Under the pieces are notes generated by a model, which was not told the origin of the DNA, did no database searches, and saw only the letters and a list, made by a program, of their open reading frames with translations. A program made the position numbers and the translations under genes. Below, piece after piece: positions 883 to 18,789 of a DNA stretch of 18,789 nt (the first letter of the stretch is position 1; each line of letters opens with the position of its first letter). Source of the stretch: Moorena sp. SIO3B2 (GTDB taxonomy: Bacteria; Cyanobacteriota; Cyanobacteriia; Cyanobacteriales; Coleofasciculaceae); contig NZ_JAAHHE010000120.1 in the NCBI RefSeq assembly GCF_010692525.1, positions 1-18,789 on the forward strand, read 5' to 3'.

Positions 883-1240
883 TATTGACAAAGAACAAGC
901 AACAAAGAACAAGTATTCAGCTTATGTGCTACGCACACGCGTGCGCGTTCAGCGGTCAGCTATCAGCGGTCAGCTCAAGTAACTCAGCTTAAACCAATGC
1001 TTACCTGTTTTATTGTAAGCATTCAGTGGTCAGCCGTGAACATTGGCCTTTGAGTCACGCTACGCGAATGGCTCACTCTACTTCAGGTGCCGTCAGAATA
1101 AAAGAAACCTAAGCAGCTTAAGTAGCGTGCTAATAGCCCATAAGCTGATAGCTGATAGCTGATAGCTGAATACTTACCAAAGAACAAATGACTATAATCA
1201 GTAACCAGTAACCTAAATAACCAATCACCAATCACAACCA
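883..1240. repeat. Intergenic block of short tandem repeats (STRR-like heptamers and 11-12-mers) and small palindromes
   Basis: caaagaacaag x2; cagcggtcagct x2; agctgat x4 (1141-1170); cagtaac x2; caatcac x2; palindrome acgcacacgcgtgcgcgt (927-944); hairpin aatgcttac-N11-gtaagcatt (1000-1028). Confidence 0.8.
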
Positions 1241-1243
1241 ATC

Positions 1244-1459
1244 ATGACTTACTTTCGTAAACGTCTCTCTCCGATCAAACCCGATGAACCGATCGACTAT
1301 AAAGATGTTGAGTTGCTGCGCAAGTTTATCACTGAACGGGGAAAAATCCTACCCCGCCGCATTACTAATCTAACGACTCAACAACAACGAAAGCTAACCA
1401 CAGCCATTAAGCGAGCAAGGTTCTTGGCTTTGCTACCCTATATTAATAAAGAAGGTTAA
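1244..1459 (+). CDS. rpsR: 30S ribosomal protein S18
   Basis: 71 aa, [38 protein letters not shown]...[13 protein letters not shown]. Canonical S18. Confidence 0.95.
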
Positions 1460-1520
1460 GGTGAACAATCACGGTCTTCCTCTGGGATATTTCCCGTGTG
1501 AAGAATCAAATATCAAATAA

Positions 1521-1551
1521 GAAGGATGAAGGATGAAGTATGAAGGATGAA
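1521..1551. repeat. Heptamer tandem repeat gaaggat (about 4 units)
   Basis: gaaggatgaaggatgaagtatgaaggatga is read directly from the sequence. Confidence 0.8.
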
Positions 1552-1681
1552 ATGGGGTGATCGATGGCTGAGGCGCGCGATGCAGTGGCCTCACGGGGAA
1601 TTCCCCCACTCGCGCTCTGCATCAAGACATGGTTAACTAAAAACTTGCGACCCAACCAGGAGTTACACTGACCACTGACAA

Positions 1682-1713
1682 CTTCAGACTTCAGACTTCA
1701 GACTTTAGACTTG
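1682..1713. repeat. Heptamer tandem repeat cttcaga (about 4.5 units)
   Basis: cttcagacttcagacttcagactttagactt is read directly from the sequence. It lies just upstream of the exoribonuclease gene. Confidence 0.8.
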
Positions 1714-1802
1714 ACCCCGTCTGCCGAGTTGGGTATCTCAACAACACAGGATAGACTGGGGGGAGGTGGATTTGGTAAACGCTACCCGGGTTATCAGAAC
1801 TG

Positions 1803-3860: not shown

Positions 3861-4022
3861 ATCTCTGTCCTTTTATAAAAATCCCCCAAAGCCGAAAACC
3901 CCGTGTCTAATGACCGGGGATGAAGGCTCACAGCGGCTTGACGCGCCTAGAAAAATATTTCAGGAAAATCCGGAATTTTAGTCTGGATGTTGTAAAATAA
4001 GGGAGTGAACAGTTTAGGTCCC

Positions 4023-4118
4023 AGACGAAACCTTAGAATAGGGTCGCCTTTATGGTTTGTCGGCTATGGAAAAAGGGTTAAAACTGTTGTTATAAGGCGA
4101 CCCTATTCTTACGGTAAC
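4023..4118. repeat. ~96-bp palindromic hairpin element (PATE/MITE-like), copy A. It has a perfect 14-bp stem agaatagggtcgcc/ggcgaccctattct around a ~47-nt loop
   Basis: The loop is near-identical to copy B at 4906-5003. It lies 13 nt upstream of the tnpB ATG. Confidence 0.8.
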
Positions 4119-4130
4119 TTTAAGAAGCTG

Positions 4131-5477
4131 ATGATCATTTTAGAGTTCAAGGCGAAAGGAAAAAAACATCAATACTCTGGGATCAACGAGGCTATCCGGA
4201 CAGTCCAGTTCATCCGTAATAGCTGCCTCAGGTATTGGATGGAAAATAAAGGGGTCAACAAATTTGACCTTAATAAGTACAGTGCAGTCCTTGCTAAAAA
4301 CTTTCCTTTTGCTAATGAATTAAACTCTACTGCTCGTCAGTCTAGTGCTGAAAGAGCATGGTCATCAATTGTTCGATTCTTTGATAACTGCAAGAAAAAA
4401 GTACCTGGAAAGAAAGGTTTTCCTAAGTTCCAGAAAAACTGCCGCTCAGTGGAGTATAAACAGTCTGGATGGAAGTTATCCCCTGACAAGAAGTCAATCA
4501 CCTTTAGTGATAAAAAGGGTATTGGGAAGCTTAAGCTTAAAGGTACATGGGACTTGTGGCGCTTGGATAAAAAGGAAATAAAGCGAGTCCGTATAGTTCG
4601 CCGGGCTGATGGTTATTATGTCCAGTTTTGTGTTTCAGTTGATATCAAAGAGGAACTAGAGCCAAGTGGGACAGCTATCGGCTTGGATGTTGGACTAAAA
4701 TATTTTTACACTGATTCCGCTGGAAAAACTGAACCAAATCCCTGCTTTTACAGAACGGTAGAAAAACGCCTTAAGTTCTACCAGCGTCGAGTTTCTCGCA
4801 AGAAGAAAGGCTCATCCAATCGAAATAAAGCAGTTAATAGACTAGGCAGACAGCACCTTAAGATAAGTAGGCAACGTGAAGAGAACGCCAAGAGACTGGG
4901 AACGAAGTTACCGTAAGAATAAAGAAGCCTTTATGGTTAGTCGGCTATGCATAAAAGGGTTAAATCTTTGTTATTAAGGCTTCTTTATTCTAAGGTTTCG
5001 TCTCCGGCGCGCTGCGTAATCTGTTCTAACGATCTGGTCGCCTAGGTCGACTTAAGAGCCAAGAACCTAGTAAAAAATCACTGCCTCGCTAAGTCTATTA
5101 ATGATGCAGGTTGGTATCAGTTTAGGAAATGGATGGAGCACTTTGGCACCAAGTTCGGAAAGGTAACAGTTGCAGTAAATCCTGCATATACCAGCCAAAA
5201 CTGTTCCAATTGTGGCGAAGAAGTTAAAAAGTCCCTATCAACTAGGACTCATACGTGCAAGTGTGGTTGTCAGTTAGATAGAGACCACAACGCCGCAATA
5301 AACATCCTTAAGAAAGCCTTGGGTACGGTGGGGCACACCGGAACCTGGATCTTAAAAGATCTAAACGCTTCAGGAGAATCGGCCTCTACTGTTCTTGGTT
5401 CCGGCCAGGTTCAGCAAGCTGGCTCGTTGAATGAAGAATCCCCGCGTATGCGCGACCGGGGAGTGTCAAAAAACTAG
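4131..5477 (+). pseudogene. tnpB: tnpB (IS200/IS605 OrfB, RuvC-like nuclease), disrupted
   Basis: N-part MIILEFKAKGKKHQYSGINEAIRTVQFIRNSCLRYWMEN...AIGLDVGLKYFYTDSAG (RuvC-I). C-part FGTKFGKVTVAVNPAYTSQNCSNCGE...CKCGCQLDRDHNAAINI (Zn finger plus RuvC-III). The reading frame is broken by the 96-nt hairpin insert (stop at 4914) and by an in-frame TAG at 5043. Confidence 0.85.
4906..5003. repeat. ~96-bp palindromic hairpin element, copy B, inserted inside tnpB. It has a perfect 14-bp stem agaataaagaagcc/ggcttctttattct
   Basis: Insert between codons KLP (4911) and ARCVI (5007). Its length is a multiple of 3 but it carries a stop. The loop is co-linear with copy A. Confidence 0.8.
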
Positions 5478-5490
5478 AAAGCTTGCTTTG

Positions 5491-7065
5491 ATGTCTCGAC
5501 ATAAGTACAAGAGATTAAAACACCAAATCATCCGGGTACCGAGCCGTTGGTACTTCTGCCTATCTTTGGCTATTACCATCCTGCTGGGATGGCTTGGTGT
5601 AGCAGTAGCACAAGATAGTAACACGAATAATTTCACTAACCTGTCTACTATCTGGTTGTTAGTTTCATCTTTTCTAGTCTTTTTTATGAATGCTGGCTTT
5701 GCCATGTTAGAAGCCGGGTTATGTAGACGGAGAAATGCGACTAATGTCTTGGCTAAAAATTTGATAGTTTTCTGTATATCAGCCTTAGCCTTTTGGCTAG
5801 TTGGCTTTGGCTTAATGTTTGGTGATGGCATCACTTACAGTTGTGTTCCAGGAGAAAATAATAGTTTAAGTTTAGTGGGTCAAAAGGGGTTGTTTTTTAA
5901 TCTTCCCTTTCCCCAATTTGGAAATCTTGGTTTTCCAGAATCAGGATTTAATTGTCTCAATCAAGATTGGTCTAATCGCTCCTTTGCGGCTCTATTTTTA
6001 TTTCAGTTAGTCTTTGCTGGAACTGCAGCCACTATTGTTTCAGGAGCTGTTGCTGAACGGGTAAAATTCTGGGCATTTCTCCTATTTAGTTTTTTCCTGG
6101 TTGGTTTTATCTATCCCGTAACCGGTCACTGGGTTTGGGGACACTATGGTTGGCTAGCCAAGGCGCTAAAATTTCATGATTTTGCGGGTTCAACTGTAGT
6201 CCATAGTGTTGGTGGTATGGCTGGCTTGGTAGGGGCTTGGCTACTAAAGCCACGACAAGGTCGTTTTGGCTACAATTTAAGAACAGATAGATATGAAGGT
6301 CTCGAAACTGAAAAGTTCTCTGCCGATAATCTGGGTTTAGCCACCTTAGGCTGCTTAATTCTTTGGCTGGGCTGGTTTGGTTTTAATGGTGGCTCAGCAA
6401 AGGATCTCGATTATGTAGCTAATACCATCACAACTACCATGATGGCAGCAGCAGCTGGTGGAATATCCAGCGTATTTTTTAGTCCAATTATCCTGGGAAA
6501 ACCCAGTCTAGCCTCAATTATCAATGGCATTTTAGGTGGGTTGGTGGGAATTACAGCCTCAGCTGCTTTTGTAGATATCAAAAGTGCATTTATAATTGGC
6601 TCTATCAGCGGTATTTTTGTCCTTTTAGGCGAATATTTTCTACAAGTTTGGAAAATTGACGACCCCGTAGGTTCGATTCCTGTTCACCTTTTCTGTGGAT
6701 TTTGGGGAACGATTGCCTTAGGAATCTTTAGTAGCAATAGTTCTCTGTTGTACTCGGAACTTGATGTATATGACGATCCATTATTACAAGTGTTGTGTCA
6801 GTTCTTAGGCTGGCTGATTATTATCATTGTAACAGCTCTATTGAGTTTATTAGGTTGGCTATTAGTTAGCCTAATTTTATATTATGCAAGCCATATCAAT
6901 GAGCGGATTAGCGGCAAACAACGCCATAGGAAACAATTACGTCAAACCCAATATTTTCAATTGGGAGAATTTATCTTAACTATTTTTGAAATTGCTCGTC
7001 GAGGAATTAGGGTATCTTTGGAAGAAGAAATCAGTGGTAGCGATGGAGTTTTTTATAATCCTTAG
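5491..7065 (+). CDS. amt: Ammonium transporter (Amt/MEP family)
   Basis: FFMNAGFAMLEAG, the signature GWFGFNGGS, VHLFCGFWGTIALGIF, about 11 TM segments and an N-terminal signal-like region. Start set at the ATG at 5491. The track ORF began at an upstream alternative codon, 5431. Confidence 0.9.
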   Translation: MSRHKYKRLKHQIIRVPSRWYFCLSLAITILLGWLGVAVAQDSNTNNFTNLSTIWLLVSSFLVFFMNAGFAMLEAGLCRRRNATNVLAKNLIVFCISALAFWLVGFGLMFGDGITYSCVPGENNSLSLVGQKGLFFNLPFPQFGNLGFPESGFNCLNQDWSNRSFAALFLFQLVFAGTAATIVSGAVAERVKFWAFLLFSFFLVGFIYPVTGHWVWGHYGWLAKALKFHDFAGSTVVHSVGGMAGLVGAWLLKPRQGRFGYNLRTDRYEGLETEKFSADNLGLATLGCLILWLGWFGFNGGSAKDLDYVANTITTTMMAAAAGGISSVFFSPIILGKPSLASIINGILGGLVGITASAAFVDIKSAFIIGSISGIFVLLGEYFLQVWKIDDPVGSIPVHLFCGFWGTIALGIFSSNSSLLYSELDVYDDPLLQVLCQFLGWLIIIIVTALLSLLGWLLVSLILYYASHINERISGKQRHRKQLRQTQYFQLGEFILTIFEIARRGIRVSLEEEISGSDGVFYNP

Positions 7066-7149
7066 AAGAATCTGGCTTATCAGTAAATAGCTAAGTCTTT
7101 AAAAGTAGGCAATAAAATAAATTTTTATTGACTAAAACCAGTCTATTAA

Positions 7150-7290
7150 GTTAGATTAATTAGTTAAATTAATTAGTTATTTAGTTAACTGTTTGCTAAA
7201 AATCCATGCATGAATTTCCTATTCCCTGTTCCCTGTTGCCACAACTACTGATTTAACAATTTAATTTAACAATTTAACAATTTAACAATT
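7150..7290. repeat. AT-rich tandem repeats: ttaattagtta-type units, ttccctg x2, and caatttaa x4-5
   Basis: Read directly from the sequence in the convergent intergenic region between amt and the 7293-8486 gene. Confidence 0.75.
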
Positions 7291-7292
7291 GA

Positions 7293-8486
7293 TTACCCCA
7301 AATATTTAGCAGCTGGACAATCTAATTTTATTAGATAGTTTCTCAACCAATTAGCATAATTCTCATTATTCCTATCCCATCGACGGAAAAAACGTGGAAG
7401 AGATTTTTGTTTAAACTGGTAGTAACGCTCTGATACTTGACAAAGATTTATAGTAGCTTGCTTGAATTCACCTTGACTAGCGAGCTCTTCTATAGCATAG
7501 GAAAACTGCAATTGATCTAACATTGACTGACATAGCTTGGGAAAAGCACTATTTTGACTCTTTATCTTTCTAAGTTGCTCTATTTGTTCTTTTCTGGTAG
7601 TAAATTGGCGTCTGCATATGTCCTCAGAAGCAAGGTTTTTTAGTTGATCGTCTGCTCTTCTAGCACTAGTACACTGAAATACACCAAAGGTAATGACTAG
7701 AAACAAGGCGATCAAGCCACCCCAAAAACTAATGGGTGATGGGATTCTGCTAGCTGATGAGGTAGCCAAGGTTGTGGCTTGGTCTGGCTCTAAAGGTACT
7801 ACAGTTGATTGGTTGGGCTCGTCAGTTGTTAGATCTGGGTGTTTGGGTTCATCAGTTGTCAGCTCTGAGTGTTTAGGCTGGTCAGTTGTGAGATCTTGGT
7901 CTTGAGTAACTGGGGTGATTGGTAGGTTAGGAAAAACCATGGCGATGGCTTGATCAGTAGCATCTGTCGTCAGCTCAGATGCCAACCAATAGTCTGTACT
8001 GGTCAACTGTGCTAACTCTTGAGCTACCCAGCTGTGATTAAAAACAACCTCATAAATACGGTTAGAAACTTTTAAATTTCCCCCCTGGTTAATCACCACA
8101 CCGGAGTTGAGCAACACTTTTTGTTCCCAACTGTCATTTGCCATCATGACTCCCTGCAAAATTTTCTGATATAGCCGCAGGAATTGTTCTTCGAGCAAGA
8201 AACTACGAATATCTTGCAGAAGTTCAGCGGCTTCCTGAGTTTCCCAATTTTCAACGAAGTGAGTTTTGACTAGTTCTTCGACTTTGAGAGCTTCCTCACC
8301 AACAGGGATGGGAGATTTAGAGTCAAGGATAACTTGACAAAGCTTCTGGGTCAAAAAAGGCTGAGAGCCAGTCCATGCCAGTACCTCGTCTAAGACAACA
8401 TCAGGGTTACTCAGATGCTCAGCCAATGCGAGTTTGAATGGTTCGAGGATTTTAGCCACCTCAGGTTTATCCTGCTTAGAGGTCAT
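7293..8486 (-). CDS. Hypothetical membrane protein: N-terminal ~190-aa soluble domain, T/D/E/P-rich tandem repeats, one TM helix, and a C-terminal ~130-aa domain
   Basis: 397-aa ORF. TM segment ISFWGGLIALFLVITFGVF. Repeats DLTTDQPKHSELTTDEPKHPDLTTDEP are encoded by three ~30-nt DNA repeats at 7815-7907. No family is confidently recognised. Confidence 0.6.
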   Translation of the reverse strand: MTSKQDKPEVAKILEPFKLALAEHLSNPDVVLDEVLAWTGSQPFLTQKLCQVILDSKSPIPVGEEALKVEELVKTHFVENWETQEAAELLQDIRSFLLEEQFLRLYQKILQGVMMANDSWEQKVLLNSGVVINQGGNLKVSNRIYEVVFNHSWVAQELAQLTSTDYWLASELTTDATDQAIAMVFPNLPITPVTQDQDLTTDQPKHSELTTDEPKHPDLTTDEPNQSTVVPLEPDQATTLATSSASRIPSPISFWGGLIALFLVITFGVFQCTSARRADDQLKNLASEDICRRQFTTRKEQIEQLRKIKSQNSAFPKLCQSMLDQLQFSYAIEELASQGEFKQATINLCQVSERYYQFKQKSLPRFFRRWDRNNENYANWLRNYLIKLDCPAAKYLG

Positions 8487-8628
8487 TTCATTCCTTGTGT
8501 ATTCCAGACTATTTTTCCTTCAAACATATTTTGTGATAGTCTTGAATTTTCGATCAAGATTAACAAGGAATTTCTATGATCTACAAGCCAGGTTATGGGT
8601 AAGATATGGGGTGTAAACTACATGTCCA

Positions 8629-8973
8629 CTACATGTCCATTACATCCAACCCCTCTGATGGCATAATCTTTCCCCCAAACGACTTAACTACATCTTCAAA
8701 CAAGGGCATATCATCCTGTGGGATTTCCACTACTACTACCATTTTGGCATATTCCTCTGCTCCTTCTTCCTTGTATTCTATTTGCTCGAAGGGCAGGTCT
8801 GTTGTCCAATCGTCTGAATTGCTATCAATCATAGGGACGTTGGGCAACAGTTCTTCAACTGGGATAGCGCGAGGTTTAAAAGGCAGATCGACGCAAAATC
8901 GAGGCAGTGCCTGATGAGAAAAATTAACGAAATCCACGGGATTGCTAAACACGACTGAAACTTGGACTTTCAT
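8629..8973 (-). CDS. Hypothetical protein (114 aa, acidic)
   Basis: ORF on the same strand, 142 nt upstream of the 7293-8486 gene. The overlapping plus-strand ORF is S/T-rich low complexity and less plausible. Confidence 0.45.
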   Translation of the reverse strand: MKVQVSVVFSNPVDFVNFSHQALPRFCVDLPFKPRAIPVEELLPNVPMIDSNSDDWTTDLPFEQIEYKEEGAEEYAKMVVVVEIPQDDMPLFEDVVKSFGGKIMPSEGLDVMDM

Positions 8974-9158
8974 AATCTATGCTATGGTATTAAATCTATT
9001 GAGACTAAGTTGAATTAATACATCATAGCAAAGATGAGCAGTGAGACAGCCTCTGACTTCCAGTCATGGCAAATCTGGGTCTAATACCCCCGTTAACCAA
9101 ACTGGTAATATGAACATTATATTGTATCGCAATGACTCAATTTAGGAATTGATGCCTG

Positions 9159-9554
9159 GTGAATAAAGACGTATCAAGGAGTTTGGTTTACGAGTTCCAG
9201 CCTCATCAGATTATTTGTTTAGAGCATGACAATACTCGTTTATACGCTGAAGTGATCGAATTTGTGTCATCGCGACAAATGTGTTGGGTGCGTTCTATGA
9301 TATTGGTCACCTTGCATAGTCAAGAGCCTGTGCCAGTGGAACTCCCTGAACAGCTTACTCTTTACGACCTACGCTCTGGACCGGATTTACTTTGGCCAGC
9401 GAGTTTATTACGACTAGCCTTAGACACTGAAGTAATTCCCCTCTTGGTTCGGTTAGATGACCCTGATGTCAATGTAGAAAGTGACCCTGATGCTCGCCAG
9501 CAACTAAGTTATTTTATCTGTGCAGTTTGGCAAGCTTATCCTGAAAAGTTTTAA
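9159..9554 (+). CDS. Hypothetical protein (131 aa)
   Basis: ORF divergent from the 8629-8973 gene. A weak hairpin acccct-N22-aggggtttt follows at about 9634-9672. No family is recognised. Confidence 0.45.
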   Translation: MNKDVSRSLVYEFQPHQIICLEHDNTRLYAEVIEFVSSRQMCWVRSMILVTLHSQEPVPVELPEQLTLYDLRSGPDLLWPASLLRLALDTEVIPLLVRLDDPDVNVESDPDARQQLSYFICAVWQAYPEKF

Positions 9555-9706
9555 GTTTTTTTAATGGTTAATCGGTAATAGGACTTTGCCAACTCAATGG
9601 TGATCTGATCACGACTCAAGCAGTAGCAAGTCAGACCCCTTAGGAGAGTAAACTAAAGTTGTAGGGGTTTTGCCACATGTAGCTGTCAGAGCTTGCCCCA
9701 ACCCTG

Positions 9707-9743
9707 AAAGTCATGGCTAAAAGTCATGGCTAAAAGTCATGGA
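9707..9743. repeat. 13-nt tandem repeat aaagtcatggcta, about 2.8 copies
   Basis: Read directly from the sequence. Confidence 0.8.
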
Positions 9744-9794
9744 GTAGTTACCAAGCCTCCGAGCTGGTCTAGCCTTAGTTTATAACCACTTTTT

Positions 9795-9989
9795 CTAGTG
9801 ACTCGGAACTAGCTGTACACGACCAGCATCCATCTCAGACATTAATAATTCCAGTGCTTCGTAATCCACATCAGAGATGTAACCAGTTTGAGTTAGTTCG
9901 TAGTTAATTGCATTTTCTATATCAGGAGTCAATTTCCTAATATAGAGGGCTTTTTCTACTAGTTGACGAATAACAAATGTAGTTTTCAC
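9795..9989 (-). CDS. Small hypothetical protein (64 aa)
   Basis: ORF only. No recognisable motif. It may be spurious. Confidence 0.3.
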   Translation of the reverse strand: MKTTFVIRQLVEKALYIRKLTPDIENAINYELTQTGYISDVDYEALELLMSEMDAGRVQLVPSH

Positions 9990-10214
9990 AATTACTTACC
10001 CACAATTCCATATAACTTTATTGTCTTCTGAAATTACTAGCCACTATAGTGATCTTTATCTTATTGGGATGTGATCTAAATCACTGATGAGGTGGATTGG
10101 TACTCTCTGACATATATATTACATATATATTATATGCCTTTTGGACTTAACTCAGAAAGCTTAACCTGAACGGAAGAAGCTATGCCGTTTCAAGGGTTAG
10201 AGGTATTGAAGTTT

Positions 10215-10336
10215 AGGTGCGACCCGTTCGCGTAGCGTTGGCAAAGCCAATAGGTGCGACCCAAGGGCGATTTATTCGCCCTTGGAGGCGCGCACCAATA
10301 GGTGCGAATTTAATTCTTAATGGGTCAAGCGCACCT
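10215..10336. repeat. Cluster of three (a)ggtgcga-type units. The third unit, 10301-10335, is the reverse complement of the copy at 14353-14397. The second unit contains the palindrome aagggcgatttattcgccctt
   Basis: The string ggtgcgaatttaattcttaatgggtcaagcgcacc reverse-complements to ggtgcgcttgacccattaagaattaaattcgcacc, which matches 14353-14397 apart from a 9-nt indel. Confidence 0.7.
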
Positions 10337-10681
10337 AAGGCAGTTATAAGGACATACTGCTTAGTACTACTTGCCTCTACACCCTAGTTAACGTTATACT
10401 TATCTAAGGCTAAACATTTGGCTCAAGCCTATAACAAAAAGTATTATATTTCTATGTCAGGGCAGCTCTATTTAGTTAACGTAACAAAAATTATTAAAAT
10501 TTAATCCCTACTTATAGGCATCAACTGAGCCATGCTCTTAGCAACTTAGACCATCGGAAATGAAAAATAAATTACTTAACTTGAAAAAAAGTAATATATG
10601 ATACATTTTGATGGTAAGTTTAATGAAGATTTCAAAAACCATTAGCAATCTGTAAAGATTCGGCAAAGTCTATCAGAAGTG

Positions 10682-10706
10682 GTATGGAATTAGCGAAATT
10701 CCATAC
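10682..10706. promoter_or_regulatory. Perfect 10-bp inverted repeat gtatggaatt-N5-aattccatac, a candidate operator upstream of the STAS gene
   Basis: The palindrome lies 60-85 nt upstream of ATG 10766. An SD-like gaggag sits 7 nt before the ATG. Confidence 0.4.
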
Positions 10707-10765
10707 TATCTTCAATATATTCTCTATAAAATTTTATTGGATTTGACCAAGTGAGGAGTCTACTC

Positions 10766-11098
10766 ATGACACAGGCGACCCTGAGTGCAAAATTAAGAAT
10801 TATTCAACCTTCCGGTCATATTAACGCTTCTAATGCAATTGAGTTTAAAAGTCAGTTGACAGAAGCTGTGGTGGCTGCTGAGGATTCGGCTTTGTTGGTT
10901 GATATGCATCAGTTAGAGTCTCTCGACAGTGCTGGCTTAATGGCCTTAATTCATGGTCTGAAGCTAGCAAGAAGTCTAGAGAGGCGCTTTGGTCTTTGCT
11001 CCGTAGCTCCTTCAATTCGAATTATGCTGGAGCTAACTAAATTAGATGGGGTGTTTGAGATTTTTGACAGCCATGAGGCTTTTGCTACAGCCCTCTAG
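10766..11098 (+). CDS. STAS-domain protein (SpoIIAA-like anti-sigma-factor antagonist)
   Basis: 110 aa from the ATG with a GAGGAG ribosome-binding site. Sequence ...LVDMHQLESLDSAGLMALIHGLKLARS... is typical of STAS. The track start at 10751 is a GTG upstream of the SD. Confidence 0.8.
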   Translation: MTQATLSAKLRIIQPSGHINASNAIEFKSQLTEAVVAAEDSALLVDMHQLESLDSAGLMALIHGLKLARSLERRFGLCSVAPSIRIMLELTKLDGVFEIFDSHEAFATAL

Positions 11099-11344
11099 GG
11101 GGTTGGAGTAGGTTGGGAAGCTAACTCAATGGCTCTGAGTGCAGCAAAATCATAGGAAATCTTGGGAAGATTAAGTGCTTACAGCGATGATGATGGGAGG
11201 AGATAGGGAAATACCAGTTAAGAAGTATGGTGGTTATTATCTCCCTCACTTCATCCACCTTCACCCCCTTATCTCTAGCCTGAGTACTGATAAAATCAAA
11301 GGTGGATCAGGGTTAACTGCATTGAAAGCAGTAATAAAGTTTCT

Positions 11345-14245
11345 ATGGCAATCACTGTAGAGGAAATATTAACACCAGACATCAACAGACCAGCCCGTTA
11401 CTTAGGTAACGAGTTGGGAGCAGTCCATAAACCTTGGGAAGAAGCTGAGGTACGCTGGGTATTGACTTATCCAGAAATCTATGAAGTGGGGGCTTCTAAC
11501 TTAGGCCATATCATCCTCTACAATATATTGAATTATCAACCTAGGCAATTATGCGATCGCGCCTATCTACCTGCCCCAGACTTGGCAGCTAAATTACGTT
11601 CCACTCAAACCCCTCTGTTTGCTGTCGAGAATCGGCGACCTCTGAAAGATTTTGATATTATTGGCTTTAGCCTTAGCTATGAATTAGGGGCAACCAACAT
11701 CTTGGAAATGTTGGATTTGGGAGGAATTCCCCTGACCTGGAAAGACCGTGCTCAGTTTGATATATCGGAAATACCCCTAATTTTTGCAGGTGGACAAACG
11801 GCGACATCGAATCCTGAACCCTATGCTGATTTCTTAGATTTTGTTGATCTTGGCGATGGGGAAGAATTGTTGCCAGAGATTGGCTTAGTAATCGAAGAAG
11901 GCAAAGCAGCTGGCTTAAGTCGAGAAGCGTTACTCCTGGATTTGGCTCAGATACCAGGGGTGTATGTCCCCCAATTCTATGATATGACTGAGGATGGCTC
12001 AGTTAAACCCAACCGCCCTGATGTGCCGAAGCGGATTTTGCGGCGTGTGGCTACACCGATGCCTGCCTATGCTATTGGACTAGTACCCTATATCCAAACG
12101 GTTCATGACCGACTCAAGATCGAAGTGCGACGGGGCTGTACTCGGGGTTGTCGCTTCTGCCAACCTGGGATGCTGACTCGACCAGCGCGGGATGTGGAAC
12201 CAGAAAAAGTGGTGGAAGCTATTGAACAAGGGATGCGTGCTACAGGGTATAACGAGTTTTCCCTTCTATCCCTGAGTTGTTCGGATTACCTGGCTCTACC
12301 AGCGGTGGGGATGGAAATCAAAAATCGTCTTAAGGATCAGAATATTTCCTTGTCCCTACCGAGTCAGCGGGTAGACCGCTTTGATGAGAATATTGCCAAT
12401 ATCCTAGGGGGCAATCGGCAGAGTGGCTTGACCTTTGCCCCAGAAGCAGGAACTCAGCGGATGCGGGATATTGTTAATAAGGGACTGACTAATGAAGAAC
12501 TGCTCAGGGGAGTAAAGACGGCATTTGAGCAAGGCTGGGAGAAAGTCAAGCTCTATTTTATGATTGGTTTGCCCGGTGAAACGGATATGGATGTGTTGGG
12601 GATTGCGGAAACGGTGCGTTGGTTGCAGCAGGAGTGCCGTGCTAAAGGCAGAAAAACCATTAAGTTTAACATAACTGTTTCTAATTTTACCCCAAAACCT
12701 CACACCCCATTCCAGTGGCATTCCGTATCGACTTCGGAGTTTGAACGCAAGCAGGAATTACTCAAACAAGTATTTGGTCAGATCAGGGGGGTGAAGGTTA
12801 ATTACACCGATGTTCGGATTTCGGCCATGGAAGATTTCGTGGGACGGGGTGACAGACGCTTAAGTGCGGTGGTGCGCCGTGCTTGGGAATTGGGGGCAGG
12901 GATGGACTCCTGGATGGAAAGCTTGGATCGGGCATTTGCTGCTTGGGAAAATGCGATCGCTTCATCAGGTCTGACCTGGAAATATCGCCAAGTAGAAAAT
13001 GGCGAATGGAACGTGATGGCGGGTGTAGAAGAGTTGCAAGTTGGAAGGTTGTTCGCGAAGCGTGGCCAAAAGGCCAAGGTTGAAAGTTCAGAGCAACCAG
13101 CTAACCTACAACCAGCTAACCTACAACCAACTAACCGACAACCAACTAACCGACAACCAACTAACCTTCAACCAGCTAACCTTCAACCAACTAACCTTCA
13201 ACCAACTAACCTTCAACCTTCTAACCTTCAACCTTCTAACCTTCAACCTTCTAACCTTCAACCTTCTAACCTTCAACCAGCTAACCTTCAACCAGCTAAC
13301 CTTCAACCGTCAACCCTTAACGCCCTTGATGCTCCCTTGCCTTGGGATCATATTGATACGGGAATTGATAAGAATTGGCTCAAGGAAGATTTACAACGGG
13401 CGTTAGATGCAGCAACGGTACCGGATTGTTCCTTTGATGGGTGTTCTCACTGTGGTGTGTGTGGGATTGATTTTGGTCATAATGTGGTGATTGACCCGCC
13501 ACAGATTCCGCAATTTGCTGGTCACTTTAAACCCAATACTAATAAGGATCAGCGGCTGCGGGTTTGGTTTGGAAAGTTGGGGGATATGACCTTGTTGGGT
13601 CATCTGGATTTGGCAAGTCTGTTTGAGAGAGCAGTAAGACGGGCGTCACTGCCAATTCGATATAGTGGGGGGTTTCGGGCTAATGCTCGGATTATGATTG
13701 CTAATGCGTTGCCCTTGGGAGCGTCTAGCAGTGGGGAGATTGTGGAGTTTGAGTTAACTGAGAAAATGCCAGTTGAGGAGTTTAGGGAAAGGCTGGTGTC
13801 TCAGTTGCCTGAAGAGATTCCGGTGTATGGGGTTGAAGCAGTGGATTTGAAGGAACCTGCGGGAACTCAGCTGTTGGAGAGAGCTGAGTATTTGATTCGA
13901 GTTGAGGTAATATCAGAAGCGTCTTGGGAAGAGTGGCAGGGTTGGATTGAAGCAATCAAAGGTAGTAAGGAAATTTGGTGGGAGCGGTTTACGAAGTCGG
14001 GGAAGAAGCAGTGGGTGAATTTATGCGATCGCTTATTTGACTTCGAGGTGATCGAACCCCAAAAATCCAAAGATGGTGAAGAGGAGGTTGCGGAGTCTGG
14101 GGTGGTTTTGCGGTATGTGGGGAGTTGTTTGAATGATGGCACGATGTTGCGACCAGAGCACATTATTTATATGTTGGAGCAGGTGGCGCAGCGGGAGTTT
14201 CGTTTGTTGCATGTTCATCGGCAACGGTTGATTCTGCGCAATTGA
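11345..14245 (+). CDS. Radical SAM protein (B12-binding-domain type, TIGR03960-like) fused to a C-terminal DUF2344-like domain, with a repeat-expanded linker
   Basis: 966 aa. It has the CxxxCxxC cluster RGCTRGCRFCQPGM. The N-terminus PARYLGNELGAVHKPW is typical of this rSAM family. The C-terminal ~270 aa after the repeats resemble DUF2344. Confidence 0.9.
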   Translation: MAITVEEILTPDINRPARYLGNELGAVHKPWEEAEVRWVLTYPEIYEVGASNLGHIILYNILNYQPRQLCDRAYLPAPDLAAKLRSTQTPLFAVENRRPLKDFDIIGFSLSYELGATNILEMLDLGGIPLTWKDRAQFDISEIPLIFAGGQTATSNPEPYADFLDFVDLGDGEELLPEIGLVIEEGKAAGLSREALLLDLAQIPGVYVPQFYDMTEDGSVKPNRPDVPKRILRRVATPMPAYAIGLVPYIQTVHDRLKIEVRRGCTRGCRFCQPGMLTRPARDVEPEKVVEAIEQGMRATGYNEFSLLSLSCSDYLALPAVGMEIKNRLKDQNISLSLPSQRVDRFDENIANILGGNRQSGLTFAPEAGTQRMRDIVNKGLTNEELLRGVKTAFEQGWEKVKLYFMIGLPGETDMDVLGIAETVRWLQQECRAKGRKTIKFNITVSNFTPKPHTPFQWHSVSTSEFERKQELLKQVFGQIRGVKVNYTDVRISAMEDFVGRGDRRLSAVVRRAWELGAGMDSWMESLDRAFAAWENAIASSGLTWKYRQVENGEWNVMAGVEELQVGRLFAKRGQKAKVESSEQPANLQPANLQPTNRQPTNRQPTNLQPANLQPTNLQPTNLQPSNLQPSNLQPSNLQPSNLQPANLQPANLQPSTLNALDAPLPWDHIDTGIDKNWLKEDLQRALDAATVPDCSFDGCSHCGVCGIDFGHNVVIDPPQIPQFAGHFKPNTNKDQRLRVWFGKLGDMTLLGHLDLASLFERAVRRASLPIRYSGGFRANARIMIANALPLGASSSGEIVEFELTEKMPVEEFRERLVSQLPEEIPVYGVEAVDLKEPAGTQLLERAEYLIRVEVISEASWEEWQGWIEAIKGSKEIWWERFTKSGKKQWVNLCDRLFDFEVIEPQKSKDGEEEVAESGVVLRYVGSCLNDGTMLRPEHIIYMLEQVAQREFRLLHVHRQRLILRN
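13094..13319 (+). repeat. 15 in-frame tandem copies of a 15-nt unit (caaccagctaacctt and variants), encoding (P[AST]N[LR]Q)x15 inside the rSAM gene
   Basis: Read directly. Unit variants are ..gct/act/tct.. and ..cta/cga/ctt... The repeat generates spurious ORFs on other frames (13041-13406 + and 13121-13306 -). Confidence 0.95.
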
Positions 14246-14352
14246 GAAATTTGGCGTTGCTGAATTAAGGTATGATTGGCTAAAAATGTGGCGTTGCTGA
14301 ATCAATCAATGAATATGAGTGGGGTGGACATCCTGCCTGCCCAAAAAGATCC

Positions 14353-14397
14353 GGTGCGCTTGACCCATTAAGAATTAAATTCGCCACGGGTCGCACC
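14353..14397. repeat. ggtgcg...cgcacc hairpin repeat copy, inverted relative to the 10301-10335 copy
   Basis: See 10215-10336. It shares its 3' half with the copy at 20-63. Confidence 0.7.
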
Positions 14398-14588
14398 GTC
14401 AGGAACGGGCAAGATGCCCATTCCACAAAACTATTCAAATCATTCCATTATTAAGCAACGCCTCAAAGAATGGTCTAAGGAAAAGAAAATCACTGCTTTG
14501 ATAAGGAAAGCCAATGGTACGGGAGTAATCAAAATTAGCCATTACCCATTACCAATAATTATCTTCTCACTGAGCTGGATTGATCTAG

Positions 14589-15458
14589 CTAACAATTATT
14601 ATTTTTAATCCTGCCATTAGGCATAATAGTGTTACAGAAAATAGCATCATTTAAGTCAGCCTTAGCTAATTTAGCCTTTTTAAGATTAGCATGGCTGAAA
14701 TTAGCCTCACTCAAATCAGCATCATGAAAGTCAACACCTTCTAAATTGGCATAACTTAGGTTGGCGGCTCTCAAGTCAGTATTATACAGTCTTGCACCAC
14801 TCAAATTAGCATGACTAAGGTTAGCGCCACACAGTTCTTCATAACCTAGGTTGACATTTTTCAAGTCTAAACCGCTTAAGTCAGCCTCGGCACAAATAAA
14901 GATTGCTCCGGCTTTTGATGGGTTAAATCCAGTCGGAAACTCAGTGTATGACGTATAGATAGCTTTGGTAAAATTTATACTACTCAGGTCAGCTTTTTTC
15001 CAGCCATCAACCCCTAGCATACGGGCATAACTGAGGTTAGCATTGCTCAGGTCAGAATCACCTACGTAAACCTCACATAAGGTAGCATAACTAAAATTGG
15101 CATCCCTGAGCTTACTAGTAGCTATATAGATTACAGATAAATCCGCATAACTCAGATCAGTACCACTAAAATCACAGTTTTCCAAGGTTGATTCAGAGGC
15201 TACTATATGACTCAAGTTAGCCTTAGTAAGGTTAGAATTTTCGATAGTGGTTTCGTATAGGTAAGCATTCCTCAAGTTAGCATGACTTAGATCTACATCA
15301 TCCCAAGTAGCTTCCTCTAAATCAGCATTACTCAAGTCCGCATTTTTTAGACAAACACCCTTGAAATTAGTACTTTTTAAGTTAGCCTTTTTCAAATTAA
15401 TACCAGAAAAATCTCTTTCACCGGCTTCGTAGCGTTTTAGGAAGTCATCACGATTCAT
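14589..15458 (-). CDS. Pentapeptide-repeat protein
   Basis: 289 aa. Continuous A(D/N)LSxANLxxA-type pentapeptide units run throughout. Confidence 0.9.
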   Translation of the reverse strand: MNRDDFLKRYEAGERDFSGINLKKANLKSTNFKGVCLKNADLSNADLEEATWDDVDLSHANLRNAYLYETTIENSNLTKANLSHIVASESTLENCDFSGTDLSYADLSVIYIATSKLRDANFSYATLCEVYVGDSDLSNANLSYARMLGVDGWKKADLSSINFTKAIYTSYTEFPTGFNPSKAGAIFICAEADLSGLDLKNVNLGYEELCGANLSHANLSGARLYNTDLRAANLSYANLEGVDFHDADLSEANFSHANLKKAKLAKADLNDAIFCNTIMPNGRIKNNNC

Positions 15459-16109
15459 AGTATGCCCCTTATTTGTTTAATATTAGATAGTAATCATCCT
15501 GATTATATCCTAAAAAAAAATATTAGTATTTTTAGAGGTTGGGTTAATGATTAATGGTTAATAGTTGTTAGTACTTAATGCTATCAAGCCTAATATAAGG
15601 TGGCCTCATACCTCATCGTTAATGTTCCGATCAGCAATCACATCTCCTATCCCAGGGGTTTGATGAAATTGCTCCCAACTCCATAAACTCAACGTAGTCA
15701 TAACGAGTTTGGGTTATTTTGGCAGAACAGAAAAAGAAAGGTTACTTTAGTTTTATAGCGAGTTCCTTTGCTGTCAGGTTACAAAATAGTTGATTGTTGA
15801 TTAGGCTTTAGGGATAAACCATGAACTATAGCAATCCTACATGAATCCTGATATTTCCTGATCCGAAGCTCCCTTGGTAAAACAATTTTGCTCACAACTG
15901 ACTTGGGATTTATATAGGCACAATACTGTATCTAAATACCTGAACATAAATGCTGTTAACTGTGTTGAAACCCTTAACGTTGTTCAACCCCTTTATGTTC
16001 TCGGTTCGCCGTTCCCTATTCCCTTATCTGATCAGTCAACTTTCATTGTGTATGACTACTTACGACCGATGAAGGCAACTTAGTAATCTAGTTCGATTAG
16101 ACCGAGACT

Positions 16110-16583
16110 ATGACTACAACTGAGCGTAAAACAGAGAAGAAAATGGAAGTGCCTAGAACAACTAGTGAAGTGATTCGCATCAAGCCCCAACAGTTTATTC
16201 ATGTGCTAGACAACAATACTGGTGTTACGCGACTGGAGGTTGGTCCTCAAACCATTACCCTTCGGGATCACGAGCGGCTGATCTTAAAACCTGAACCGAT
16301 GATTATTGTGCCGCCTCGATATTATTGTGTGGTGGCTAATCCATTACTCCGGGATGAAGACGGTCAACCCATTGCTGATCAGCATGGTCAAATTCGACTG
16401 CGCTACGGTGATCTGGAAATTCGTTTCGCGCAAGATCCGTTTCCCCTTTATCCAAACGAGAAACTGGTAGGGGATTTGACACTCCCCGTTCTTCTAGGAC
16501 GGGGAGTGTCAAAGGCAGAAAATATAGCCATTGAGTCTACAGGTCAGGCAACAGCAGAAGCAAGAGCTAAGGAATACTCTTAA
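16110..16583 (+). pseudogene. Major vault protein (MVP) homolog, N-terminal remnant (repeat domains 1-2) joined to a short cap-helix-like piece and then truncated
   Basis: IRIKPQQFIHVLDNNTGVTRLEVGP, VPPRYYCVVANP and [25 protein letters not shown] match the recalled MVP N-terminus ([25 protein letters not shown] / VPPRHYCTVANP / [25 protein letters not shown]). A full MVP is about 850 aa, so the middle is missing. Confidence 0.75.
16476..16512. repeat. Perfect palindrome ttgacactccccg-N11-cggggagtgtcaa with a 13-bp stem. It carries the same motif as the tnpB right-end hairpin at 5440-5470
   Basis: Read directly. It lies at the point where MVP N-terminal homology ends. Confidence 0.85.
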
Positions 16584-18271
16584 ACCGTCATCAATCGGGA
16601 TAAAACCGAATAAAACGGCCAAGGTGCATTTTATTGATGTCTGAGTGAGGAGCGGTCAAGTAGCAATTGGAGTCAAGCCTCCCGCTCATCTATCTAGACG
16701 TTCCTCACATCCCGGTGAGGAGTTCCTTAAAAGCTTGAGTTTTGGCATGCTTGCGGTCAAGCCATCCTAGCTTAACCGCGTCAGCTAAAGTCAAATCCAT
16801 ACCTTCTAAGAAACGCGCAGTACGACGCAACAATACTGCCTGCACTTCAACCCTAGTCATAAACCGGGAGATTCCTTGATCTGTACCACGAGCAAGGATA
16901 TTCTTCGCAGCATTGTGATCAGCCTGCAACACGACCCCATTAAATCTGATAAAACTGTCCCCAATCCTTGCTCCCAATAAGGTGCCAGAAAAGGAGTCAA
17001 TTTGCGACGTGTAGCTTGGCTGGACTTCTGTCACAACCGAACCAGTCCAATTAGCCCATTTCTGCAAGGAGTACCGCATTTCTCCTTTCATCCAGCTATT
17101 CAACTTGCGAGACATAGCCTTTGACTGGCGTTTATTTTTGATTGGTTGCGTTAAATCCTCAGCAAAAATTCTTAGAGATTCTCCTTTGAAGAGGGATTTA
17201 GAAGCAGCCCCTATAATCGCCCTCAACTCTGATTGATCTCTTCTGTAACGACTGTTTTCTGTTTTTCGACTCAGATTATTTTTCAGTATCCGAGCTGATT
17301 TAGCTGGATCTATTTTTTCTAGCTTCCTATGTATTGCCCAGAGTTTTCCTCTGTTCCGATTTTTGGCGCATATTCGATGGCCAAAAGGCCACGCTACGCG
17401 AACGGATTTTATGGTTGCTATTTTGCCCAGGTTCTTCCCGTGTGCCTGACCATCTGAATCATAAAAAGCCTCGGTGTATCCCTTGTCTACTCCTATCGCT
17501 CGACGTTCAGGAGGAATCTCAGCTGTCCCGTGATTAACCAAAAAATGAATCTCAAATCTTGCCAGTAGAGAGTTGTATATTAGTCTAATCTGTCCTTTAA
17601 TATTTCGATTAGACCTAACTATTAGTTTGTTTCTTTTTCCTCTTCTGATTCCAGCTAATTCCAATTGATAAGTATAACGAGACAATCGTTTACACGAGTA
17701 TCCTCCTTGTTGGTATACAACTTGATTCTTGACCCAATAATGTCCTCTCTGAAACTCTTTCCTTACAAGTCTGTGCAATAGTGGATTATCCAGAAAAGCT
17801 GAAGTTTTGAGTTGCTTAGAGATATCCTTTCTGATCTTCTGGTTTTCCTTTCCAGGAAACCTCTTATAGATCTTTTTTATGACTGCCTCAATGGAAGCCG
17901 CTTGTTGAGCTGTGATAGTTTTAGCTACATCACTGACAGTCCATTCCATTAACTTGGAAGGCAAGCCCAGGGACTCAGGCTTCCTGAAGTCCCTGACTTC
18001 TGGGTAGGCTTTTTTCCAGTCAAGTCCCCAATGACTTATACTACCCAGCTTGTTGTAAGACTCAGACCTGACGACGCCTAGTTTTTTCATCGTAGACAAC
18101 AGCTCAAGCTCAACCGACTTAGCTATCCCTACAACTGGGACGACCTGAGTCGATATCTTCTTTACTGCGCCTACTTTCTTTTGCATCATCAACGGTGTGT
18201 ACAGCTTTTGCTATATACTGCCATTATAGTCTAGCGCTATAAAATTGTCAATGTCCAGTTCGCACTATTAA
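16584..18271 (-). mobile_element. Insertion element carrying a TnpB-like gene, minus orientation. Ends are approximate
   Basis: MVP-like coding sequence stops at 16583 and resumes at 18272. The 3' flank contains the hairpin cctcacatcccggtgagg. Confidence 0.5.
16705..18192 (-). CDS. TnpB-like (IS200/IS605 OrfB-type) RuvC-fold nuclease/transposase-associated protein, 495 aa, without the usual CxxC..CxxC zinc finger
   Basis: RuvC-I AIGVDKGYTEAFYDSDGQ, RuvC-II IFAEDLTQPIKNKRQSKAMSRKLNSW, RuvC-III VVLQADHNAAKNILARG. There are no Cys residues between RuvC-II and RuvC-III. Confidence 0.75.
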   Translation of the reverse strand: MMMQKKVGAVKKISTQVVPVVGIAKSVELELLSTMKKLGVVRSESYNKLGSISHWGLDWKKAYPEVRDFRKPESLGLPSKLMEWTVSDVAKTITAQQAASIEAVIKKIYKRFPGKENQKIRKDISKQLKTSAFLDNPLLHRLVRKEFQRGHYWVKNQVVYQQGGYSCKRLSRYTYQLELAGIRRGKRNKLIVRSNRNIKGQIRLIYNSLLARFEIHFLVNHGTAEIPPERRAIGVDKGYTEAFYDSDGQAHGKNLGKIATIKSVRVAWPFGHRICAKNRNRGKLWAIHRKLEKIDPAKSARILKNNLSRKTENSRYRRDQSELRAIIGAASKSLFKGESLRIFAEDLTQPIKNKRQSKAMSRKLNSWMKGEMRYSLQKWANWTGSVVTEVQPSYTSQIDSFSGTLLGARIGDSFIRFNGVVLQADHNAAKNILARGTDQGISRFMTRVEVQAVLLRRTARFLEGMDLTLADAVKLGWLDRKHAKTQAFKELLTGM

Positions 18272-18516
18272 ATACAGTTTTGTCCTAATTTTTCGGGACT
18301 TGACTGCGAGGCTCACATTAAGAGTGAAGAATACCGACAGAAAGTAGAAGCAATTGGTCCTCAAACCATTCAAGCGATCGCACAAGCAGGTCCGGAAATG
18401 CAGGCAAGACTTCTAGAAGCACTTGGTATCCAGAGTGTTTTGATTACCGATGGCAAAAATCCCATCAATCTATTTGGTGCAGCTAATGGTCTGATTAGTC
18501 CGCCAACTTCTAACTA
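18272..18516 (+). pseudogene. MVP homolog, C-terminal remnant (cap-helix end and cap-ring)
   Basis: [55 protein letters not shown] matches the recalled MVP [55 protein letters not shown]. Confidence 0.7.
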
Positions 18517-18528
18517 AGTACATGTGTA

Positions 18529-18566
18529 TCTGCTGCGCGCAGCAGACACAGCGCGCAGCAGACACA
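18529..18566. repeat. 18-bp perfect palindrome tctgctgcgcgcagcaga overlapping a tandem 16-mer gcgcgcagcagacaca x2
   Basis: Read directly. It sits just downstream of the MVP stop. Confidence 0.85.
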
Positions 18567-18586
18567 GATAGACTGATAACCCAACG

Positions 18587-18612
18587 CTATCTTACCGGTC
18601 TATCTTACCGGT
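18587..18612. repeat. 13-nt tandem repeat ctatcttaccggt x2
   Basis: Read directly. It overlaps the stop codon of the minus-strand partial CDS. Confidence 0.8.
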
Positions 18613-18789
18613 CTATATGTGTCGAAGGTTGAGAGTTGAGGTGTTGCTCAACTCTGTTAATGACCCCTAGTACGAGAAACAGAGCAAATACTACAGCAAC
18701 ACCGATAGCAGTCCACTTGAAAAAAACTAACTTTGGCCGACCTTTAGCTGGATAACCACAACTGAGGCAAATTTCATCGTTGGTGCTGG
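18605..18789 (-). CDS. Partial CDS, 3' end only (the gene continues beyond the window). Its C-terminus has CxxC and a TM helix
   Basis: Open frame from the window edge to TAA at 18605-18607, translating ...STNDEICLSCGYPAKGRPKLVFFKWTAIGVAVVFALFLVLGVINRVEQHLNSQPSTHIDR*. It is absent from the ORF track because no start lies in the window. Confidence 0.4.
   Translation of the reverse strand, partial: STNDEICLSCGYPAKGRPKLVFFKWTAIGVAVVFALFLVLGVINRVEQHLNSQPSTHIDR

Follow-up and report, generated by a model that had tools for sequence, protein, structure and literature searches.

How does a TnpB-like protein that keeps a RuvC D-E-D triad without the usual zinc finger come to lie in a cyanobacterial genome, and what kind of element carries it? 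The question is raised by a minus-strand gene of Moorena sp. SIO3B2, within an 18,789-nucleotide stretch of DNA (contig NZ_JAAHHE010000120.1 of assembly GCF_010692525.1, positions 1 to 18,789, hereafter the window), for which an initial annotation, made from the letters alone, had suggested a divergent TnpB of Fanzor-like or IS891-type descent. We read positions 16571-18311 of the window, with a probability of roughly 80%, as a non-autonomous copy of an IS607-family element that has lost its transposase gene tnpA, has multiplied in Moorena, and encodes a TnpB together with an omegaRNA scaffold.

The protein is a full-length TnpB

The listing of open reading frames (ORFs) in the window contains a minus-strand ORF at 16705-18192, of 495 codons when counted from a TTG at 18192, and its translation includes the segment SQIDSFSGTLLGARIGDSFIRFNGVV. 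The conserved tnpB start is the second ATG, at 18186, where the alignment of the paralogs begins; this leaves a coding sequence at 16705-18186 (minus strand) of 493 aa plus stop, free of interruptions across its 493 codons; residue numbers below follow this 493-aa form. An identical protein is annotated in Moorena sp. SIO1G6, and Moorena genomes hold many paralogs at 70-85% identity. Functionally, the catalytic site is intact, as had been reported, with the RuvC-I aspartate D234 in the motif GVDKGYTEAF (17485-17487, minus strand), the RuvC-II glutamate E343 at its canonical position in AEDL (17158-17160, minus strand), and the RuvC-III aspartate D423 in QADHNAAKNI (16918-16920, minus strand). 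In an alignment of 65 family members these motifs are invariant down to an identity of 32%.

Profile searches with hidden Markov models (HMMs) gave a single significant Pfam match, PF07282 (Cas12f1-like TNB, formerly OrfB_Zn_ribbon), at 28.2 bits against a gathering threshold of 26.3, over aa 370-431; a Y2_Tnp match at aa 105-180 (E = 0.031, below the cutoff) was taken as chance. The NCBIfam guided_TnpB profile, NF040570, aligned over nearly its whole length (residues 53-434 against positions 27-389 of 389), and the NCBIfam IS200_TnpB model did not match the protein. Among solved structures, the best sequence match found with phmmer was AsCas12f (E about 0.007). Structurally, an AlphaFold2 model built from a 50-sequence alignment (mean predicted local distance difference test score, pLDDT, of 84.7) has the WED-REC-RuvC-TNB fold, and a Foldseek search of the PDB with it was headed exclusively by TnpB, Cas12 and Fanzor structures, with AsCas12f (E = 6e-11), ISFba1 TnpB (4e-8) and ISDra2 TnpB (1.5e-7) at the top and Fanzor2 among the best. 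The protein is a full-length TnpB fold with an intact D234/E343/D423 triad, and nuclease activity is predicted for it. HMM, fold and family alignment agree on the proposed divergent TnpB without a zinc finger, and the ~230-aa N-terminal extension of the initial annotation turns out to be the usual WED/REC half of TnpB, covered by both the HMM and the structural alignments.

Loss of the zinc ligands is a trait of the clade

The TNB (‘zinc-ribbon’) segment, delimited by the AsCas12f alignment, the clade motif and the AlphaFold2 strands, spans aa 392-421 (16924-17013, minus strand; YTSQIDSFSGTLLGARIGDSFIRFNGVVLQ) and has no cysteine. In the phmmer alignment, YTSQIDSFSGTL.LGARIGDSFI..RFNGVVLQADHNAAKNI lies opposite YTSQRCSECGNIdSGNRIGQAIFkcRACGYEANADYNAARNI of AsCas12f, and all four Cas12f cysteines (CxxC...CxxC) are replaced, by D, S/G, R and G at the aligned positions; translation and alignment alike bear out the cysteine-free stretch quoted earlier between RuvC-II and RuvC-III. 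Across the clade the first cysteine is replaced by Asp, and the remaining zinc ligands by Gly, Arg or Thr. The ribbon of the 65-member alignment reads YTSQxDSxxGxLLGxRxGDxF..F.G.V.QAD.NAA, cysteine-free, and its D, G, LLG, R, GD and F vary little or not at all; AlphaFold2 models it confidently as short beta-strands.

Among 240 retrieved relatives, 224 have no CxxC in the ribbon; the full CSQCGC...HCxxGC is kept in only seven, all of Thiotrichaceae type, and two cyanobacterial sequences have one stray CxxC each. The whole cyanobacterial and betaproteobacterial clade lacks the finger, which the Thiotrichaceae relatives (Parabeggiatoa, Thiomargarita) possess, with a ribbon that reads CSQCGC.GKRxGDxFHCxxGCG. 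At larger scale, scoring 1.84 billion cluster representatives of a 50%-identity library yielded 634 matches at E <= 0.001; the nearest of them are cysteine-free, and in the farther ones the same G(K/R)RxGDxF spacer is framed by CxxC...CxxC. When one genome of each species was scanned, no fewer than 264 related stretches came to light, within Moorena, Symploca, Scytonema, Iningainema, Stigonema, Crocosphaera and further cyanobacteria as well as a few proteobacteria. Evolutionarily, this gradation, with cysteine-free relatives near, finger-bearing ones far and the same spacer in both, implies that the finger was lost within a lineage that retained the ribbon. Since ribbon, spacer and D-E-D site are all kept, the domain is predicted to fold without zinc, and the replacement of the ligands in an otherwise preserved context suggests a zinc-independent TNB domain. 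The initial annotation had held a hit to a standard zinc-ribbon model to be incompatible with its reading, and the PF07282 match is formally such a hit, even as the HMMs uphold the TnpB lineage; the match reflects a ribbon sequence kept minus its cysteine ligands, and so the observed cysteine loss is not overturned.

The same conservation bears on the idea that the frame merely resembles TnpB by chance, or is decaying, its cysteines lost as those of a pseudogene would be. The other TnpB of the window (4005-5477) is indeed broken, but the ratio of nonsynonymous to synonymous substitutions (dN/dS) in the present family is 0.09, the cysteine-free motif is itself strongly conserved, and hundreds of homologs are intact. 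These data refute decay: the cysteine loss is a trait of the clade.

Could the loss instead have disabled cleavage, leaving a clade of RNA-guided DNA binders that act as regulators or roadblocks in the manner of TldR or Cas12m? Exapted, nuclease-dead relatives of TnpB are known, and the TNB/zinc-finger domain of TnpB and Cas12f adjoins the RuvC site. The function of the finger is also called unclear in a census of the family (PMC10691335). We nevertheless regard this as improbable, in that the catalytic residues and motifs are invariant to 32% identity, whereas the known dead derivatives lose them, and in that the genes stay within multi-copy elements with intact ends and with transposase-bearing relatives. 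Neither of the two losses that mark TldR-like proteins, that of the RuvC residues and that of the transposon context, is seen here. Moreover, larger Cas12 nucleases, Cas12a and Cas12b among them, cleave DNA without this zinc finger.

As a side observation on the finger-bearing relatives, three Parabeggiatoa metagenome loci (L081-L083) represent one conserved locus beside an AAA_15/AAA_21 ATPase and a small HNH protein. No resolvase was seen upstream of the tnpB genes in the three loci examined, and this Parabeggiatoa subclade may lie outside a mobile context.

Element ends and assignment to IS607

Comparison of genomic copies, which the initial annotation had called for, places the ends of the element at 16571 and 18311. 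Similarity among ~40 Moorena copies runs from ~120 bp before the start codon to ~134 bp past the stop codon, and these limits, together with a comparison of the interrupted host gene, define a mobile element of about 1.74 kb including its GG cores (16571-18311, minus strand). The host gene encodes a major-vault-protein-like protein, of which an upstream remnant lies at 16110-16570 (plus strand; Pfam Vault_2, 93.6 bits) and a C-terminal, downstream remnant at 18312-18516 (plus strand; 93% identity to M. producens P0389). The window reads ...gctaa-GG-[element]-GG-ctcacatt..., and the uninterrupted M. producens homolog (L079, 2665-3140) reads ...gctaa-GG-ctgaagcgg...(~165 bp)...gagcgtat-GG-ctcacatt.... 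Relative to this homolog, both junctions fall exactly at GG, and the ~165 bp between its two GG sites are gone from the window. The core (crossover) dinucleotide at the right-end junction (16571-16572; GG on the plus strand, CC on the gene strand) comprises the last bases in common with L079, and that at the left-end junction (18310-18311; GG on the plus strand) the first bases in common again, with G|CC kept in autonomous relatives. The missing ~165 bp suggest an adjacent deletion of the recombinase type, with AGCC microhomology as the alternative. Because the host gene is rearranged, with ~600 central aa and these ~165 bp gone, a simple comparison of filled and empty sites is impossible; the GG junctions can still be placed.

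Several side observations concern this host gene. It has been cut to about 220 codons, with N-terminal repeats joined to a cap-helix/cap-ring C-terminus and ~600 central codons gone, and the M. producens ortholog is broken too, by several insertions. At 16474-16514, the site from which the central part has been lost, the remnant contains a near-perfect palindrome, gatttgacactccccgt...acggggagtgtcaaagg, whose terminal sequence ttgacactcccc flanks a ~0.5-kb insertion in the M. producens ortholog; the palindrome probably represents the collapsed ends of a small element resembling a miniature inverted-repeat transposable element. Just past the vault-gene stop, at 18530-18625, we noted by eye the tandem duplications gcgcgcagcagacaca x2 and ctatcttaccggt x2. 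The ORF at 16110-16583, considered as a Y1 TnpA, was ruled out as a fragment of the vault protein.

Read on the gene strand, the Moorena copies open with G-(C/T)C-TCGCAA at the left and close with ...CGGTTTAAGAGTATC-(C/T)C at the right; in 26 of 28 copies (16 TC/TC, 10 CC/CC) the left-inner dinucleotide recurs as the final dinucleotide of the right end. Flank alignments of 36-39 copies revealed neither terminal inverted repeats nor a target duplication, including a 2-bp TA duplication. The right end has two copies of the motif ATAAAAC[CG]G and the left end one, inverted: the two right-end direct repeats, ATAAAACCG and ATAAAACGG (16600-16618, plus strand), are candidate TnpA-binding subsites by comparison with the repeats of relatives (three copies of CCGTTTTA at the same right-end place) and by IS607 precedent, and the left-end copy of opposite orientation, ACAAAACTG, lies at 18275-18283 (minus strand). 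IS607 elements are marked by GG at both termini and in the target, by the lack of terminal inverted repeats and target-site duplications, and by short direct repeats in the ends (PMC6188088), all of which we find here.

The transposase itself is missing from the element, from the rest of the window and from all Moorena copies of this subfamily; it is found in relatives. Ten more distant members of the family have an ORF of 193-211 aa immediately upstream of tnpB on the same strand. All four that were tested (L049, L056, L068 and L077) match the IS607 transposase model NF033518, scoring 184-221 bits where the cutoff is 110, and ORFs of the same size occupy this place in L051, L058, L060, L063, L065 and L078. 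In these autonomous relatives, the sequence preceding tnpA can be aligned to the left end of the Moorena elements: all begin with G|CC, and the similarity ends just ahead of the tnpA start codon, so the Moorena elements appear to be tnpA-deletion derivatives.

It is here that an origin outside IS607 has to be weighed, either as an element of the IS200/IS605 group (IS1341- or IS891-like) mobilised by a Y1 HUH transposase via single-stranded intermediates, or as a Fanzor-like lineage. Such an origin would account for Moorena copies that consist of tnpB only, without inverted repeats or target duplication, and for the small hairpins close to both ends. Against this, the upstream genes of the relatives are IS607 serine recombinases wherever tested, with the six further ORFs agreeing in size and position, no Y1 gene was found among the neighbouring ORFs of 36 loci, and the same junction dinucleotide at both ends and in the target is not a Y1 product. 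These relatives and GG-core junctions, IS891 itself not being among the elements compared, also argue against the IS891-type label (that is, the IS1341 group of IS200/IS605) in the initial annotation. As for Fanzors, Fanzor2 of mimivirus (PDB 9b0l) and the pro-Fanzors have DPG in RuvC-I, a glutamate six residues before the zinc finger, and the finger itself, whereas the present protein has DKG, a canonical glutamate ~50 residues upstream of the ribbon, and no finger. Both versions are largely refuted, and we consider them very unlikely.

Promoter and omegaRNA

Upstream of tnpB, within the left end, lies a sigma-70-type promoter, TTGACA-N17-TATAAT (18223-18251, minus strand), that matches the consensus at 12 of 12 positions and is kept in the copies. 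A palindrome, (C)TAGCGCTA(G), occupies the spacer between -35 and -10 (18232-18239, minus strand) at the same place in all copies, and may be an operator or a structural element.

At the other end, the final 160-260 nt of 22-33 copies, aligned with MAFFT and folded with RNAalifold, gave a structure with a hairpin at the stop codon, a long-range stem around two inner stems, and a terminal conserved stem at the right end. In the MAFFT-only alignment, 97.8% of cells are paired as compared with 33-47% in slid controls, and 23 of 65 pairs show compensatory change (for example UA:17/CG:16 and GC:18/CG:13). With a covariance model (R1) trained on the Moorena copies, the same RNA was found directly 3' of tnpB in other genera, among them Scytonema, Iningainema, Stigonema and Iphinoe, as well as in a Xenococcaceae genome with a protein identity of only 34% and, in part, in Crocosphaera. 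The model matches in relatives, in an alignment fitted to the model, are paired at 95% (31-42% in slid controls), with 29 of 33 pairs compensatory. The RNA is strand-specific, as judged from 174 G-U cells (97.8% paired in sense, 86.4% in antisense). Searches of Rfam, with the window at gathering thresholds and the locus at E-value thresholds, returned no known family, only chance miRNA and lncRNA matches.

In position and structure this RNA matches an omegaRNA (reRNA) scaffold, with a core of four covarying helices and the terminal conserved stem at 16571-16732 (minus strand), ending at the right junction. A probable 5' extension, more weakly supported than the core, lies inside the last ~40 tnpB codons at 16733-16830 (minus strand; helices 2-5 of alignment A3), where some compensatory changes occur despite the coding constraint. 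An omegaRNA downstream of the gene had thus been rightly supposed, but its limits of 16585-16704 give way to 16571-16732 or longer, overlapping the last codons of the ORF. The hairpin named at the time, cctcacatcccggtgagg, is real and covarying: as UCCUCAC-CGGGAU-GUGAGGA it crosses the stop codon (16702-16721, minus strand), with compensatory changes at three of its seven pairs, in 7-15 of 33 copies.

Target-adjacent motif, guide and proposed mechanism

The left flank beside the core, GTGAG|CC on the gene strand (18312-18316, minus strand), is the inferred region of the target-adjacent motif (TAM) according to flank counts. At its -3 position G is found in 35 of 36 copies, followed further upstream by an A/T/T bias (25, 18 and 17 of 36), while 38 of 39 copies have C as the -3 base of the right end, the window copy having T. 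By analogy with IS607 systems, these counts would give a TAM of about (TTA)G-YC, opposed to ...AT-C-YC at the right end. The right flank at 16551-16570 (minus strand), 5'-UUAGCUCUUGCUUCUGCUGU, differs between copies and is the predicted guide template by analogy with IS607 TnpB; the guide of this copy is predicted to be the complement-sense of 16551-16570.

Where IS607 systems have been characterised, precise excision by TnpA takes place over the core dinucleotide, and the rejoined donor site is then cut by the TnpB-omegaRNA complex; the core dinucleotide is part of the TAM in IS607 TnpB systems and also forms the end of the scaffold. By the same logic, we infer for the Moorena elements that TnpB would be an RNA-guided endonuclease transcribed from its own left-end consensus promoter, and that the omegaRNA scaffold would overlap the 3' end of the gene and run to the right junction, with read-through into the flank supplying the guide. 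TnpA provided in trans would excise and insert the element by exchange over the 2-bp core (CC on the gene strand; TC in sister subfamilies), after which TnpB-omegaRNA would cut the emptied donor site at a TAM of about (TTA)G-YC followed by a guide match, and the element would be regained by recombination with a filled copy. The right-end C (T in this copy) in place of the TAM G would prevent self-cleavage.

Selection and the state of this copy

A median dN/dS of 0.09, at a dS of about 1.3, across the 38 intact Moorena copies indicates purifying selection, while three near-identical orthologous pairs give dN/dS values of about 0.85-1.3, on the small counts of such recent pairs. This pattern is consistent with that expected when a protein is selected only through propagation of its element.

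Against the assignment to a tnpA-deleted IS607 family with a working TnpB-omegaRNA pair stand several observations. The cognate tnpA of this Moorena subfamily was not found, and the sole autonomous Moorena element seen is L080 (Moorena sp. SIO2B7), which pairs a MerR/HTH-resolvase gene with a family TnpB; as a helper source of TnpA it is unconvincing, belonging to another subfamily with unrelated ends. With NF040570 the protein scores 66.7 bits, short of the curated cutoff of 100, and it has no match to the NCBIfam IS607_TnpB model. The TAM derives from only 36 old and diverged insertion flanks, and no biochemical work on a zinc-finger-less TnpB, in this clade or elsewhere, is known to us. Finally, this copy has a 24-nt loop insertion as well as a T instead of C at right-end -3, and, the recent orthologous copies being neutral, this individual copy may be inert.

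The last point amounts to an explanation of its own, compatible with that for the family as a whole: the window copy would be an inert relic without a cognate TnpA, evolving neutrally, its TnpB and RNA idle. The element and window without tnpA, the near-neutral dN/dS of the orthologous pairs and the 24-nt repeat insertion all speak for it, as do the ~165-bp host deletion and decayed host gene, which point to an old, neglected locus, and the closest paralog found, already at a dS of 0.88. On the other side, the 493-codon ORF is uninterrupted with its triad intact, the promoter is a perfect consensus, all RNA helices are kept, and the insertion, VRVAWPFG (aa 263-270; 17380-17403, minus strand), is in frame and forms a low-confidence surface loop (pLDDT < 50) that, although missing in most paralogs, is common to some other intact copies. 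We lean against the relic while granting it an appreciable chance; any present activity of this particular copy is putative.

The insertion comes from a short dispersed Moorena repeat, GTTCGCG[TA]AGCGTGGCC, of which the window has four matches against 0.01 expected. The repeat is about 24 nt long, is often followed by a TGGCC-TTTT-GGCCA hairpin, and inserts in frame into coding sequences; further sites in the window lie at about 13051-13067 (plus strand), 10226-10242 (plus strand) and 1053-1069 (minus strand), and a near-copy is located inside a radical-SAM gene. A similar insert, AVR[VE]AWPTA, takes the place of the RuvC-II glutamate in L014, L017, L020, L021, L029 and L030 (near position 4006).

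Other features of the window

The second TnpB of the window (4005-5477, plus strand) is canonical, with the zinc finger CSNCG...CKCGC, so that the comparator chosen in the initial annotation does carry CxxC...CxxC. It is a disrupted copy, split into ORFs at 4005-4916 and 5133-5477 with stops between them and ~50 profile positions gone, and its 3' end overlaps the called start of an ammonium-transporter ORF. A 397-aa ORF at 7293-8486 (minus strand) has no Pfam or NCBIfam match.

Relation to known systems and implications

The closest parallels, both characterised by experiment, are CboTnpB of the Clostridium botulinum IStron (bioRxiv 10.1101/2023.11.20.567912) and the TnpB of Xylella ISXfa1 (PMC10711439), which likewise have tnpA upstream of tnpB in autonomous relatives, a 2-bp GG/CC core at the junctions and in the target, no terminal inverted repeats or target-site duplications, and an RNA of ~150 nt that extends from the tnpB 3' end over the right end. 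In the Cbo IStron, the right end is spared by a -3 difference, the TAM being TGGG and the right end TCGG (bioRxiv 10.1101/2023.11.20.567912), and the inferred Moorena TAM likewise contains the core and shows a -3 contrast, here of G and C. The Moorena side differs in its very divergent protein without a C4 finger, its lost tnpA and its lack of a group I intron; in sister subfamilies the core is TC, not CC, and the activity, TAM and RNA ends are predicted. ISDra2 TnpB (PDB 8h1j, 8exa; 408 aa) has a Y1 partner, a C4 finger and a DRDxN RuvC-III, whereas the protein described here is IS607-type, with a cysteine-free ribbon, QADHN, 493 aa and a conserved helical C-terminal tail. AsCas12f (PDB 8dzj, 7wju, 8j12) is both the best sequence match and a shared top fold match, with ADYNAA resembling ADHNAA here; Cas12f differs in being CRISPR-associated, in working as a dimer on a CRISPR RNA (crRNA) paired with a trans-activating crRNA, and in its intact CxxC...CxxC.

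Within the census of Altae-Tran et al. 2023 (PMC10691335), the ADHNAA of RuvC-III fits the major clade of ‘derived TnpB, NADXN’, and the family would fall among the serine-recombinase-associated branches of that clade. Zinc-finger loss is noted there in TnpB branches, for example RIIIr-4, which shares with the present family the loss of the C4 finger between RuvC-II and RuvC-III as a branch-level trait; RIIIr-4 has a rearranged RuvC-III residue, and the canonical QADHNAA places our family outside it. Zinc-finger loss being already recorded in 2023, the family is a well-documented new member rather than a new kind, and our literature search on TnpB with Moorena found no paper on these elements.

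For the TnpB family, the role of the C4 finger in TnpB and Cas12f has been described as unclear, and its losses in branches are noted only at census level (PMC10691335). The locus offers a clean test case, with exact ends, core, promoter, a covarying omegaRNA, an inferred TAM, a putative position that tells self from non-self, and relatives graded from CxxC to cysteine-free, on which the dispensability of the finger, and what replaces it, are directly testable. We propose, speculatively and with more doubt than confidence, that the cysteine-free ribbon is a zinc-independent, fully active TnpB domain that evolved stepwise, with finger-bearing intermediates in Thiotrichaceae. If this is true, the family would be a natural experiment on the purpose of the TnpB/Cas12f zinc finger; the ribbon might alter the loading of the substrate strand or the response of activity to metal availability, and it would provide a new metal-independent scaffold for compact genome editors, with an omegaRNA of ~160 nt and a TAM of about AG-YC. 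For Moorena, the elements represent a large, old expansion of tnpA-less IS607 elements whose TnpB is selected only through propagation, which fits the proposed role of TnpB in transposon retention.

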